Positions 3,092 to 18,869 of a stretch of 64,000 nt of DNA are shown here, one piece after another. The notes beneath the pieces are model-generated. The model saw nothing but the letters and a program-made list of their open reading frames with translations. It searched no databases and was not told the DNA's origin. This DNA is from Candidatus Nanoarchaeia archaeon. GTDB lineage: Archaea > Nanobdellota > Nanobdellia > Woesearchaeales > JANQNC01. The DNA is taken from positions 914,154-978,153 of the forward strand of contig JANQNC010000001.1 in NCBI GenBank assembly GCA_028279745.1, given 5' to 3'. Position 1 is the first letter of the stretch. Every line of letters begins with the position of its first letter. Both the position numbers and the translations under genes were made by a program.

Positions 3092-3657
3092 AAGCTCAAG
3101 ACGTGATAAAAAAGATCGCACCCGTTTTTTTAGTACTAGTAAGTATGTTTGTTATTTTTATAGTTTTAATTATGGCTCAAATGGGAATTTTTACTTGTGC
3201 ACCTGGAGAAGTTGGTGAGTGTAATCTGTTGGATGGAGAAAAAGGCATAAGGTTATGTTCTTCTTCGGGAAAACTAAGCAAATCCTGGAGTGTATGTTTA
3301 CCTTATGAATGCAACAGACTGGACGCCACAGAGAAGTGCGAATTGACTGAAGGATTAGTTGGAATAAAAAAGTGTGTTCCTCGGGGTGAAGTTGGCAAAG
3401 TTTGGAGTGAGTGCGTTTTACACGAATGCGAGTATGACGGTAAGATCTTAGAATGTGGTTTTTCTGACGGAAGTAAAGGAATCCAGAACTGTGTGAGTTT
3501 TAAAGGAATTGGCACTAAATTAAGTGAATGTATCCTGTATGAATGTGAATATGCTTTTCAGGAAAAAGCCTGTATTTTAAGTAGTGGCTTAGAAGGCAAA
3601 CAAATCTGCCAAAGCCATAGTGGTGGCTTGGGCAAAAAATGGAGTGAATGCCAGTAA
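3088..3657 (+). CDS. Membrane-anchored cysteine-rich repeat protein (4 x ~31-aa Cys4 repeats)
   Basis: N-terminal TM (VFLVLVSMFVIFIVLIMA) followed by four repeats of pattern C-x6-G-x3-C-x(10-12)-WSEC-x3-EC; start overlaps upstream stop. Confidence 0.55.
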   Translation: MKAQDVIKKIAPVFLVLVSMFVIFIVLIMAQMGIFTCAPGEVGECNLLDGEKGIRLCSSSGKLSKSWSVCLPYECNRLDATEKCELTEGLVGIKKCVPRGEVGKVWSECVLHECEYDGKILECGFSDGSKGIQNCVSFKGIGTKLSECILYECEYAFQEKACILSSGLEGKQICQSHSGGLGKKWSECQ

Positions 3658-3750
3658 CTCCACTAAATCTTTATAAATAAAATACTTGTTCTTTAATGTA
3701 TGAACCTGTAGCGCAGCCTGGCAACTGCCACTGTCAGTTGACACCAGGAG

Positions 3751-3780
3751 GCGACTCCTAGTGCTTCGCACCGGAGTCCC
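3751..3780 (+). repeat. 30-nt hairpin module copy 1 (inside D-loop intron of tRNA-Arg CCT)
   Basis: gcgactcctagtgcttcgcaccggagtccc; stem GCGACTCC/GGAGTCcc; repeated at 3901-3930 with 2 mismatches. Confidence 0.8.
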
Positions 3781-3900
3781 CTGGGAACACTTGATCGTGT
3801 AAGTTGGGCAAATAGCGCAATAGCCTCCTAAACTTAAGTTGAAGACAGCTATAGGTCGAGGGTTCGAAACAGCTGGTTACGCTCAGCTGGCACGCAAAAA

Positions 3901-3930
3901 GCGACTCCTAGTGTTACGCACCGGAGTCCC
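3901..3930 (+). repeat. 30-nt hairpin module copy 2 (inside T-loop intron of tRNA-Arg CCT)
   Basis: gcgactcctagtgttacgcaccggagtccc; both copies are also adjacent to a shared tgtcagtt/gttgac motif. Confidence 0.8.
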
Positions 3931-3987
3931 TTGTGATTTGTCAGTTAGTAACTGTTGACGAAAGTCCCTCCAGGTTCGTATTTTAAG

Positions 3988-5091
3988 ATGATACAAGAAG
4001 CATACCAGATAGCAAAAGAGAATTTGAGGAATTCGTATAGTGATAAAGGGGTGTTAGCAGGGACAACACACTTTTCAGACTACTGGGCAAGAGACGGACT
4101 CTATGCCGTATTTGGAATGTGTGAATTGGGGGATTTTGAAAAAATAAAAAAAGAGCTGCTTTTGTTGCTTAATTATCAGAAAAAGGATGGGCAGCTGCCT
4201 TTAAGGGTTGGACAGAAAAGTATGATCTTGAACTTTTTAGGAATTAAAGGTAAGATACAAGCAAGATATACAGAAGACAAAAAAGATAATGTTCCAACAG
4301 ATCAAAATTCTTTGTTTATAATTGCATTAAAACATTATGTTGATAAGACTGGAGACATTGATTTTGTAAAAAAGAACCATTCAAAGATAAAAAAAGTGAT
4401 AGACTGGTATGGTGCAGGAGATCTGGTTGTTGAAGATGAATATTGCTCGTGGGCAGATAACATAAGAAAAAAAGGAAAAGTGCTGTATACGAATGTACTT
4501 TACTGTAAGGCATTATCAGATATGCATAAAATGGAGAATAAGCTGGGACATAAATCAGAGTATATGAAAAAATCAGTTTTTATTAAAGAGAAAATCAACA
4601 AAGAATTCTGGAGCGGAAACTACTATTCAGACTGGATAGACTCTGAAGGGCGACATGATTATTTTACTGCCTGTGGAAACTTATTAGCAATAATATTTGA
4701 TGTTGCAGACAAAGAGAAAGCATATAAGATACTTTATTTTATGGAAAAGAATAAGTTAGATGGGGGGTTCACAACACTTAATGCATTTCCAAGATACAAA
4801 AAAGAAGAAAAGTCAGCATTACTGAGATTTTTCGGGATGGATGACTATCAAGACAATGTATACTGGTTATGGCCTGGCTGTTTGGATATAATAGCAAGAC
4901 ACAAAACAGGATTTAAGTATGAAGATCTTGTCAGGAAGATGTCAGAAAAGATTGTAGAGCATAAAGGAGTTTATGAAGTTTATAGTTTGGATGGGAAACC
5001 ACTTAAGAGATTATTTTATAGGTCAGAAAAGAATTTTGCATGGAGTTCGTCTCTTTTTATACATGCTGTTCACGAAACAAAACTATTTTGA
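3988..5091 (+). CDS. Glycoside hydrolase-like protein (six-hairpin, amylo-alpha-1,6-glucosidase / GH63-like)
   Basis: HFSDYWARDG motif and overall resemblance to GDE_C/GH63 family; start moved to ATG 3988 because longer ORF (3955) overlaps the tRNA. Confidence 0.55.
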   Translation: MIQEAYQIAKENLRNSYSDKGVLAGTTHFSDYWARDGLYAVFGMCELGDFEKIKKELLLLLNYQKKDGQLPLRVGQKSMILNFLGIKGKIQARYTEDKKDNVPTDQNSLFIIALKHYVDKTGDIDFVKKNHSKIKKVIDWYGAGDLVVEDEYCSWADNIRKKGKVLYTNVLYCKALSDMHKMENKLGHKSEYMKKSVFIKEKINKEFWSGNYYSDWIDSEGRHDYFTACGNLLAIIFDVADKEKAYKILYFMEKNKLDGGFTTLNAFPRYKKEEKSALLRFFGMDDYQDNVYWLWPGCLDIIARHKTGFKYEDLVRKMSEKIVEHKGVYEVYSLDGKPLKRLFYRSEKNFAWSSSLFIHAVHETKLF

Positions 5092-18503: not shown

Positions 18504-18552
18504 GATTGTGGTACTTCACTTTGTTCAGTACCACGCAGACTTTTAGAAACAA

Positions 18553-18650: not shown

Positions 18651-18728
18651 TAAGGGGTTTCGCTACGCTCAAGCCCCTGGGTACTGTTGGACTTGATGTG
18701 CTGTAGCACTTCAGTTGTGAAAATAAAA

Positions 18729-18869
18729 CGGACCTGGAGGGACTTTCGATGCATAAGCATATTCGAACCCTCGGTCTACAGCTCTCTGCGACGCCAGGCG
18801 CTGAGCCAGCGAATCTATGATTCTAGCGTGTAGAAGGCTGTCGCCCTATCCAGACTAGGCTACAGGTCC
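18729..18869 (-). tRNA. tRNA-Arg (anticodon TCT) with two introns (anticodon loop 47 nt; T-loop 59/60 19 nt)
   Basis: Manual fold of reverse complement: GGACCTG-TA-GCCT-AGTCTGGATA-GGGC-G-ACAGC-CTTCTA^[47 nt]^A-GCTGT-AGACC-GAGGG-TTCGAA^[19 nt]^T-CCCTC-CAGGTCC-G. Confidence 0.65.

Follow-up and report, generated by a model that had tools for sequence, protein, structure and literature searches.

The window analysed here, meaning the whole 64,000-nt stretch of contig JANQNC010000001.1 from a Candidatus Nanoarchaeia archaeon, to which the coordinates of gene, introns and modules refer, contains a tRNA-Arg(CCT) gene interrupted by three introns of the bulge-helix-bulge (BHB) type (Table 1). The two long introns, one in the D-loop and the other in the T-loop, carry an almost identical hairpin, referred to below as the module, which belongs to a family of structured inserts found in tRNA introns and outside them in other archaeal genomes. 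The window is archaeal, as its gene for GatE shows, and has a G+C content of ~35%, and the best homologs of a neighbouring protein carry Nanoarchaeota or Woesearchaeota labels.

The archaeal splicing endonuclease cleaves within the two 3-nt bulges of a BHB motif, and an RtcB-type ligase joins the exons. When 3722-3811 (or 3722-3812), 3831-3846 and 3869-3964 are excised, ARAGORN folds the resulting 75- or 74-nt product into a perfect tRNA-Arg(CCT) cloverleaf. In intron 1, GCCU (3716-3719) pairs with GGGC (3806-3809), including one G.U pair, the bulges are GGC (3720-3722) and AAA (3810-3812), and the inner helix is formed by AACU (3723-3726) and AGUU (3802-3805). The BHB helix of this intron shows a compensatory C-G to U-A change between the window and its ortholog at locus L035. 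Furthermore, the junction agrees with the D-loop of the paralogous tRNA-Arg(TCT) (GGATAG) and with the ortholog at L036 (…CTTGG/ATAGCGC, the slash marking the junction); since the D-loop of L036 is uninterrupted there, exon 2 starts at A3812. Intron 2 has a relaxed BHB in which CUCC faces GAAG with 3 of 4 bp formed, and in the orthologs the same 37/38 site holds introns of 22 nt (L036) and 70 nt (L035). The outer helix of intron 3 is the T-stem itself; UUCG (3863-3866) pairs with CGAA (3959-3962), the bulges are AAA (3867-3869) and AGU (3963-3965), an inner helix is present, and partition-function folding of the full precursor gives the BHB a pair probability of 0.94-0.98. The anatomy of the gene and its introns is established by this analysis, and the introns are presumably spliced.

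Table 1. Features of the tRNA-Arg(CCT) locus, in window coordinates
Feature	Position	Strand	Remarks
TATA-like box TTTATAAATA, putative promoter	3670-3679	+	23-32 nt upstream of the tRNA 5' end, the usual spacing of an archaeal TATA box
tRNA-Arg(CCT) gene with three BHB introns	3702-3978	+	Spliced product is a perfect ARAGORN cloverleaf; orthologs in L035 and L036
Exon 1: acceptor 5' strand, D-stem 5' strand, D-loop through G18 G19	3702-3721	+	
Intron 1, D-loop, 90 nt	3722-3811	+	Defined by fold; junction set by L036 and the D-loop of tRNA-Arg(TCT)
Hairpin 1 of intron 1, CAACUG-ccacugu-CAGUUG	3722-3740	+	
Module copy 1	3749-3782, core 3753-3778	+	Inside intron 1
Exon 2: D-loop 3' part, D-stem 3' strand, anticodon stem 5' strand, anticodon CCT, A37	3812-3830	+	
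Intron 2, canonical 37/38 position, 16 nt	3831-3846	+	Pairing worked out manually
Exon 3: A38 to A59	3847-3868	+	
Intron 3, T-loop 59/60, 96 nt	3869-3964	+	Strict hBHBh' motif
Hairpin 1 of intron 3, CAGCUG-guuacgcu-CAGCUG	3870-3889	+	
Module copy 2	3899-3932, core 3903-3928	+	Inside intron 3
3' tail of intron 3, TGTCAGTTAGTAACTGTTGA	3939-3958	+	Rod pairing with intron 5' end; includes TGTCAGTT
Exon 4: T60, T-stem 3' strand, acceptor 3' strand, discriminator G	3965-3978	+	

A covarying hairpin shared by two introns

A preliminary description of this DNA had pointed out near-identical 30-nt hairpins in two introns of one tRNA, and both the positions and the number of differences hold, as does the assignment to introns, which is confirmed by the cloverleaf and by an ortholog without the long introns. 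The 2 differences between the 30-mers at 3751-3780 and 3901-3930 fall in the apical loop, and the 30-mers are the sole copies in the 64-kb window at up to 3 mismatches (0.00 expected); similarly, the pattern GACTCC-N8-20-GGAGTC has 2 matches in the window compared to 0.01 expected. Both long introns contain GACTCCTAGTG(N5)CACCGGAGTC, and the ungapped repeat between them spans 36 nt at 89% identity. The homology of the two introns extends over ~70 nt and comprises a first hairpin (hairpin 1), a linker and the module.

The two copies share a minimum free energy (MFE) and centroid fold with z-scores of -2.6 and -3.4. From base to tip, this fold consists of 3 bp, a C.C mismatch, 6 bp (GACUCC/GGAGUC), a UA/C internal loop, a GUGC/GCAC helix and a triloop. 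The hairpin had initially been described as an 8-bp stem with a 14-nt loop; the stem proves to have six perfect base pairs, beneath which lie the mismatch and the 3 bp, and in the MFE structure the presumed loop is itself folded into the internal loop, a 4-bp helix and a 3-nt loop. Copy 1 has the closing pairs AGG/CCU and the triloop UUC, copy 2 has AAG/CUU and a UAC loop with a U.G closing pair, and the core of copy 2 is identical to the copy at L028.

The three closing pairs, which were left free by the search pattern described below, covary across 27 distinct copies, one of them occurring as G-C, U-A or A-U and another as G-C or A-U. The covariation score of 14 double-change cells is reached by 0 of 500 shuffles. 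This establishes the covariation of the hairpin, and it follows that the module strand is under selection to fold. Rfam 15, applied at gathering and permissive thresholds to the window, to 3600-4100 and to 31 loci (L002-L020, L022-L025, L027-L033, L035), has no match on the module, and the gathering-level matches are to tRNA and rRNA only. A stretch of the module, CTCCTAGT…CCGGAGT, recurs in helix 95 (H95) of Escherichia coli 23S rRNA, and mimicry of the sarcin-ricin loop was therefore considered; it was dismissed, as the 23S rRNA of the module-bearing lineage L025 has CCCTCTAGTACGAGAGGAACGGGGG and the module has no AGUA/GAA bulged-G core. This resemblance is regarded as a coincidence.

Beyond the module, family members share a layout of ~75-100 nt, in which a variable hairpin 1 is followed by an A-rich linker with AGGC at its end, then by the GC-rich tip hairpin and CCCU. 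Members that are introns also have a 3' tail whose sequence is complementary to their 5' end, which leaves the intron two possible folds, one with hairpin 1 and one in which a rod presents the BHB; in intron 1, the 5' arm of hairpin 1 has an alternative pairing with the 3' tail AGUUG (3802-3806), which produces the rod. A tgtcagtt…gttgac motif had also been noted next to both hairpins. Its constituent TGTCAGTT is not enriched by itself (5 occurrences in contrast to 3.6 expected), but the motif does belong to the homologous arms, as CAGTTGAC makes up the 3' arm of the first hairpin of intron 1, with a related copy in the 3' tail of intron 3.

A dispersed family inside and outside tRNA introns

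The family was searched for with exact matches to the pattern GACTCCTAGTG-N3-7-CACCGGAGTC. This pattern occurs at 11 loci in 185,579 species-representative genomes, where ~1.4 are expected by our own calculation, and all 11 lie in archaeal metagenome-assembled genomes, 9 of them labelled Woesearchaeota or Nanoarchaeia and 2 from one bin labelled Methanosarcinales. An additional 21 loci were found in Joint Genome Institute (JGI) metagenomes. The search beyond the window that the preliminary description called for has thus produced 32 further loci, almost all with a Woesearchaeota or Nanoarchaeia label, and a hairpin confined to this gene and not conserved in relatives, the outcome named there as contradicting the idea of a shared element, was not observed, because the element occurs widely. 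Scans of viral contigs, plasmids and phages in IMG/VR, PLSDB and INPHARED gave zero matches, and a viral or plasmid origin was dropped for this reason. The proteins of the window are 50-60% identical to those of the module-bearing loci, and the module with a few flanking bases is 100% identical.

About half of the copies, 12 distinct ones, are BHB introns; all of them lie on the sense strand and have well-formed BHBs. According to ARAGORN assignments, introns with the exact module occupy the 59/60 position in tRNA-Ala(GGC), tRNA-Val(CAC), tRNA-Val(TAC) (two orthologs), and tRNAs for Glu, Thr, Ile, Leu and Arg, and hand reading places a module-bearing intron at 37/38 of tRNA-Gly(GCC) in two orthologs. 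A D-loop intron with the module occurs only in the tRNA-Arg of the window. The same module and scaffold are hence present in different tRNA species and positions, as expected of a paralogous intron family. Eleven 59/60 introns were read by hand, the nine with the exact module and the variants of L033 and L035, and in 9 of them the 4-nt helix strand of the intron begins with a base that pairs with base 57 (G57 with C, A57 with U). An origin of the T-loop BHB from a simple target-site duplication, a CGAA repeat, was rejected, since introns with A57 carry UGAA, which means that a pairing is maintained and not a repeat.

The other copies lie outside introns. One directly follows the 3' end of a tRNA-Leu gene (L031), and a sense-strand copy is located in an rRNA operon between an intron-containing spacer tRNA-Ala and the 23S processing stem (L025, 6804-6829, minus strand). 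In L002 (3935-4055), an antisense copy lies exactly at the 3' end of tRNA-Val, and that end is duplicated over 22 nt. Similarly, two tandem antisense copies lie exactly at the 3' end and T-run of the 5S rRNA in L018 (3600-3850), accompanied by the 13-nt repeat CCAACTTTTTTTT, and the copy in L014 is enclosed by 20-nt repeats ending in a T-run. Shuffled sequences reach at most 11-12 nt, compared to the flanking target repeats of 22 nt (L002), 20 nt (L014) and 13 nt (L018). In L023, L024 and L030, a copy follows a 19-nt duplicate of the 5' end of tRNA-Gly. The remaining copies are found in short intergenic spacers and are mostly antisense to housekeeping neighbours. Insertion seems to favour the 3' ends of stable-RNA genes.

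The genes that neighbour the copies encode, for example, PGI, a GTPase, NFACT, a radical SAM protein, archease, RNA polymerase and a secretion ATPase, and an autonomous partner gene beside the copies was discarded as an idea, since these are housekeeping genes. A role as an outward promoter or operator was also considered, as several intergenic copies are antisense and immediately precede a start codon (L008, L009, L011); it was set aside and would leave the intron copies unexplained. As a separate observation, L011 (1014-1299, minus strand) contains two tandem small genes of ribbon-helix-helix-like type, each with an antisense family member abutting its start codon, one with the canonical module and the other with a variant tip. 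In L008 (3914-4333, minus strand), a gene for archease, a cofactor of the RtcB tRNA ligase, lies ~320 nt from an intergenic copy, which is probably coincidental.

A covariance model built from the module (R1) recovers variants beyond the exact pattern. These include a 59/60 intron of tRNA-Met in which the lower stem and the UA/C loop are kept under a GCC/GGC apex, and others in which a different hairpin is framed by only GAC/GUC or only AGGC…CCCU. In addition, the tRNA-Gly intron of L024 and L030 retains hairpin 1 and the linker, and carries a different tip of the same shape.

The introns of the window can be placed within this family. Introns 1 and 3 form a 'CARCTG' subfamily with L002, L014 and L018, and the third pair of hairpin 1 covaries, being either A-U or G-C in intron 1, intron 3, L002 and L014. 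The hairpin 1 loop of intron 3 is identical to that of L002, and the two are 88.7% identical over 62 nt when the module is included (blastn). In the 5' halves, intron 3 matches L002 at 30/34 positions and intron 1 matches L002 at 24/31, compared to 21/31 between introns 1 and 3. Because each is closer, outside the module, to copies of other genomes, introns 1 and 3 are not recent within-gene duplicates. The earlier proposal of a duplicated or mobile intron element therefore survives in the form of a family dispersed over many tRNAs, positions and genomes, the existence and distribution of which are established here, but not as a recent duplication within the gene.

Orthologous loci: presence, absence and mosaicism

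Two orthologous loci, L035 and L036, were found through homologs of the downstream glycosidase gene, independently of the module. L036, with 61% identity in the neighbouring protein, has a tRNA-Arg(CCT) gene in which the 22-nt 37/38 intron is the only intron. Introns 1 and 3 are precisely absent, as the sequences GCAGCTTGG/ATAGCGC and GGTTCAAA/TCCCC are uninterrupted (slashes mark the insertion points). L035, with 65% protein identity, has three introns at the same three sites. Its intron 1 retains the AGGC…CCCUGG frame around an unrelated 8-bp tip, and in its intron 3 the module is present as the variant GACGTTCGGTGCTTCGCACCGAAGTC, which has a compensatory change and scores 27.5 bits. The 5' half of the latter intron is identical (31/31) to that of the tRNA-Val intron of L017, and the 5' half of L035 intron 1 matches window intron 3 (26/33) better than window intron 1 (18/31).

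A further case is provided by the tRNA-Val(TAC) orthologs of L020 and L028, the exons and D-loop intron of which are near-identical, and the T-loop introns of which have very different flanks around the same module. The precise presence and absence of introns and their mosaicism are thus established, and the empty sites of L036, the swaps in L035 and the flanks in L020 and L028 indicate that introns come and go, and are also replaced and recombined, within short periods. In the more distant orthologs P0004, P0006, P0009 and P0010, synteny with the tRNA is lost and the loci are uninformative.

Two elements resembling C/D boxes were seen in L035 (2446-2570). The 70-nt 37/38 intron contains CUGAUGA…CUGA with a terminal stem, and the tail of intron 1 contains CUGAUGA and CUGA separated by 12 nt. 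Their Rfam matches are weak (E 0.4-9), and these boxes are absent from the introns of the window.

Interpretation and competing explanations

The reading that we favour, and regard as reasonably probable, is that the module marks a dispersed, recombining and probably mobile family of structured inserts specific to DPANN archaea of the Woesearchaeota/Nanoarchaeia type, in which the tip serves as a folding clamp. One family member would occupy the D-loop and another the T-loop of tRNA-Arg(CCT). The ends of each intron would pair into a rod, the base of which, together with flanking exon nucleotides, would constitute the BHB motif; the endonuclease would cut both 3-nt bulges, and an RtcB-type ligase would join the exons and probably circularise the intron. 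The tip is proposed to nucleate the rod and to prevent the AU-rich intron from mispairing with the tRNA body, so that the insert would be tolerated. The family would spread, swap segments among introns and also land outside introns. Splicing, the clamp role and the way of movement are steps that we infer, and on this account the family behaves as a selfish, mobile or recombining element, not as a host gene.

The clamp role was addressed by partition-function folding of the 277-nt precursor with the native tips or with both tips replaced. With native tips, the BHB helix has a probability of 0.94 in intron 3 and 0.17 in intron 1. GAAA in place of both tips lowers these values to 0.09 and 0.00, respectively, and AU-rich replacements give 0.61 and 0.01, whereas the unrelated tip hairpin of L035 intron 1 sustains 0.94 and 0.19. 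A structural clamp is favoured by these tip replacements together with the naturally swapped tips, and according to the models a folding clamp is the most likely function of the tip.

Several points weigh against this reading. The BHB probability of intron 1 is low in the native precursor and rises to 0.54 after removal of introns 2 and 3, and the clamp argument is drawn from thermodynamic models only. A pure clamp also fails to explain an identity of at least 22 nt across genomes with ~55% identical proteins; a near-invariant core at this protein identity points instead to recent horizontal spread or to sequence-specific recognition. At the same time, scanning for exact matches overstates the conservation of the core by construction, and most copies found independently of the pattern have variant or different tips. 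With respect to mobility, no transposase, reverse transcriptase or integrase adjoins any copy, the flanking repeats vary in length between 11 and 22 nt, and the repeat beside tRNA-Gly may instead be a truncated tandem gene copy. [quoted passage not shown]

A more specific version, possible but doubtful in our estimate, is that the module marks an active non-autonomous mobile element, with the excised intron as the transposition intermediate and the invariant hairpin as a cis-signal for a mobility factor. Insertion would take place into tRNA loops and, in either orientation, at the 3' ends of stable RNAs (tRNA-Val, tRNA-Leu, the 5S rRNA T-run), and the variable target duplications of 13-22 nt at some of these insertions would fit target-primed copying as in short interspersed nuclear elements (SINEs), or a mechanism undescribed in archaea. 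If this is true, the family would be the first system for dissecting the mechanism of archaeal tRNA intron gain. To our knowledge, no donor element, intermediate or target rule has come to light for tRNA intron gain at many positions since the 'intron transposition' of Thermoproteales. With its recognisable core, its filled and empty sites in orthologs, the mosaic exchange between introns and the extra-intronic copies flanked by duplications at RNA-gene 3' ends, the family makes the question of intron gain testable by genome census and metatranscriptomics.

The identity of the core across very divergent genomes is also what would be expected if the hairpin were a sequence-specific site for a lineage-specific RNA-binding protein, selected wherever precursors of stable RNAs carry spacers. 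The protein could be a processing or chaperone factor for pre-tRNA and pre-rRNA, or a stabiliser of the excised intron. Persistence of the core between L020 and L028 while the flanks diverge is consistent with such a site, as are the sense-strand copies in introns, a tRNA 3' trailer and an rRNA spacer, and the conserved C.C mismatch and UA/C loop look like a recognition surface. Nevertheless, the positional ortholog of intron 1 in L035 and the tRNA-Gly introns of L024 and L030 carry different tips, many copies are antisense to neighbouring genes, L036 manages without both long introns, and no candidate protein was identified; we consider a protein site unlikely.

Recognition could also take place at the DNA level, by a transposition system that acts on single-stranded hairpins, of the type of repetitive extragenic palindromic elements (REPs) with their RAYT transposases or of the insertion sequences IS200/IS605, or with an enzyme of another kind, and the intron copies would then be spliceable only incidentally. 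The module resembles this class of hairpins as an imperfect palindrome of invariant sequence with a mismatch and a small bulge; its reverse strand folds equally well or better, copies are dispersed in intergenic regions, and some are flanked by target duplications at RNA-gene 3' ends. These same duplications argue against the idea, since IS200/IS605 and REPs produce none. Furthermore, there is no Y1/HUH gene near the copies, nor is a TnpA, RAYT or TnpB gene present in 45 loci examined near them, and the viral and plasmid collections are devoid of matches. The 12 distinct intron copies all have the sense orientation and well-formed BHBs, which fits descent, RNA-level copying or gene conversion, and a DNA-level hairpin appears quite improbable.

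The preliminary description had further suggested an L7Ae-type site or a guide-like small RNA (sRNA), and a module within an intron-encoded guide ribonucleoprotein, either C/D or H/ACA, or a K-turn bound by L7Ae, has a precedent in the C/D box sRNAs encoded by tRNA-Trp introns of other archaea (PMC12558985); boxes resembling C/D elements also occur elsewhere in the introns of the ortholog L035. The structure of the module speaks strongly against both. A K-turn requires a 3-nt bulge and tandem sheared G.A/A.G pairs, but the module has UA opposite C, flanked by C-G and G-C pairs, with no tandem G.A pairs in or beside the hairpin. As the preliminary description had recognised, there are no canonical C/D boxes, neither RUGAUGA nor CUGA being present in introns 1-3, and no Rfam match rises above noise. 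An H/ACA layout is equally absent, as the copies share no conserved ACA downstream of the basal stem or at a fixed distance and contain no K-turn. Moreover, the conserved nucleotides are buried in Watson-Crick stems and therefore cannot act as guides, which leaves this explanation very improbable. Finally, short-read (Logan) contigs of SRR20820740 break at 3868-3896 (L001 ends at 3896 and L034 starts at 3868), which makes the region repeat-like for assemblers, probably because further copies of hairpin 1 or of the module exist in the genome, but a private within-gene duplication, a chance repeat or an assembly artefact is scarcely credible given the module at 32 other loci, the perfect tRNA obtained from the exon order, the three-intron layout shared by L035 and an expectation of 0 copies by chance.

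Among known systems, the closest to the dispersed and recombining family favoured here is found in Thermoproteales, where transposition of tRNA introns has been inferred from sequence similarity across tRNAs and the mechanism is described as unknown (work of 2010, reviewed in PMC4033280). The likeness consists of similar introns in different tRNA species and at non-canonical positions and of tRNAs with several introns. By contrast, the host here belongs to DPANN and not to TACK, the family has a covarying, near-invariant hairpin core, segments are visibly swapped between D-loop and T-loop introns, and copies also occur at tRNA and 5S 3' ends, in an rRNA spacer and at intergenic sites, some with target duplications. 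The tRNA fragments with an insertion beside an intact tRNA gene that mark integration sites (Sugahara et al. 2012, cited in PMC4033280) are comparable in that a duplicated piece of the tRNA gene flanks the insert (L002, L004, L023/L024/L030, L012, L025), and differ in that the insert here is ~60-100 nt and encodes no recombinase.

In DPANN, many disrupted tRNA genes are known, together with splicing endonucleases that have an L3 loop and broadened specificity (PMC5829648). The introns described here agree with these in combining 37/38 and non-canonical positions, BHB or relaxed BHB motifs and genes missed by standard tools (PMC5829648). The DPANN reports cover intron positions and enzyme types, and unlike the present case contain no shared intron-borne structured module or element family. 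Functional RNAs from tRNA introns, such as the C/D sRNAs of tRNA-Trp introns and circular introns, resemble the family as conserved structured RNAs that are likely released and circularised (PMC12558985, PMC4536317), whereas the module has no guide boxes, is a closed hairpin and is not bound to one tRNA or position. REPs, MITEs and Rickettsia palindromic elements are likewise short, non-coding, hairpin-forming, dispersed, sometimes located in stable-RNA genes and nested (PMC3733652, PMC10969869). The family differs from these repeats in the absence of terminal inverted repeats, of a GTAG/CGTC tag and of an associated transposase, in its long flanking repeats of variable length (11-22 nt), which are not of the fixed length that MITEs call for, and in that about half of its copies are spliceable BHB introns in one orientation. 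A report of the module, or of an element family with extra-intronic copies, was not found in the literature.

A second recurrent motif in these genomes is a hairpin with the loop GAGYGARC-RAA-GYGARC (e.g. GGGGCTTGAGCGTAGCGAAACCCC), usually located just 3' of tRNA genes. It occurs in the window at ~18655-18690 and ~18510-18540 (both minus strand) and in L005, L008/L015, L010, L012/L033, L019, L020, L025, L028 and L032. The final 11-13 nt of the tRNA are repeated after it in L012/L033 and L025, and in L020 it lies within the hairpin 1 loop of the module-bearing intron. Furthermore, the orthologous copies of L015 and L008, and of L022 and L013, differ by small AU-rich hairpin inserts of the AAAAGC-nnn-GCTTTT type. 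This suggests that further families of nested miniature hairpin inserts exist in these genomes.

The long inserts also affect annotation. On the raw window, ARAGORN and Rfam called only a tRNA-Cys and missed tRNA-Arg(CCT), and in total two of the three tRNAs of the window escaped these tools. Long inserts thus hide tRNA genes from ARAGORN and Rfam, and probably from tRNAscan-SE as well. Incomplete tRNA sets have been reported for DPANN (PMC5829648) and for complete Nanobdellota genomes (preprint 10.64898/2026.05.13.725050), and hidden genes may explain such 'missing' tRNAs. The other disrupted gene missed by both tools is tRNA-Arg(TCT) at 18729-18869 (minus strand), in which the 37/38 intron measures 47 nt and the 59/60 intron is minimal (19 nt, TATGCTTATGCATCGAAAG) and lacks the module; the T-arm of this tRNA is identical to that of tRNA-Arg(CCT).

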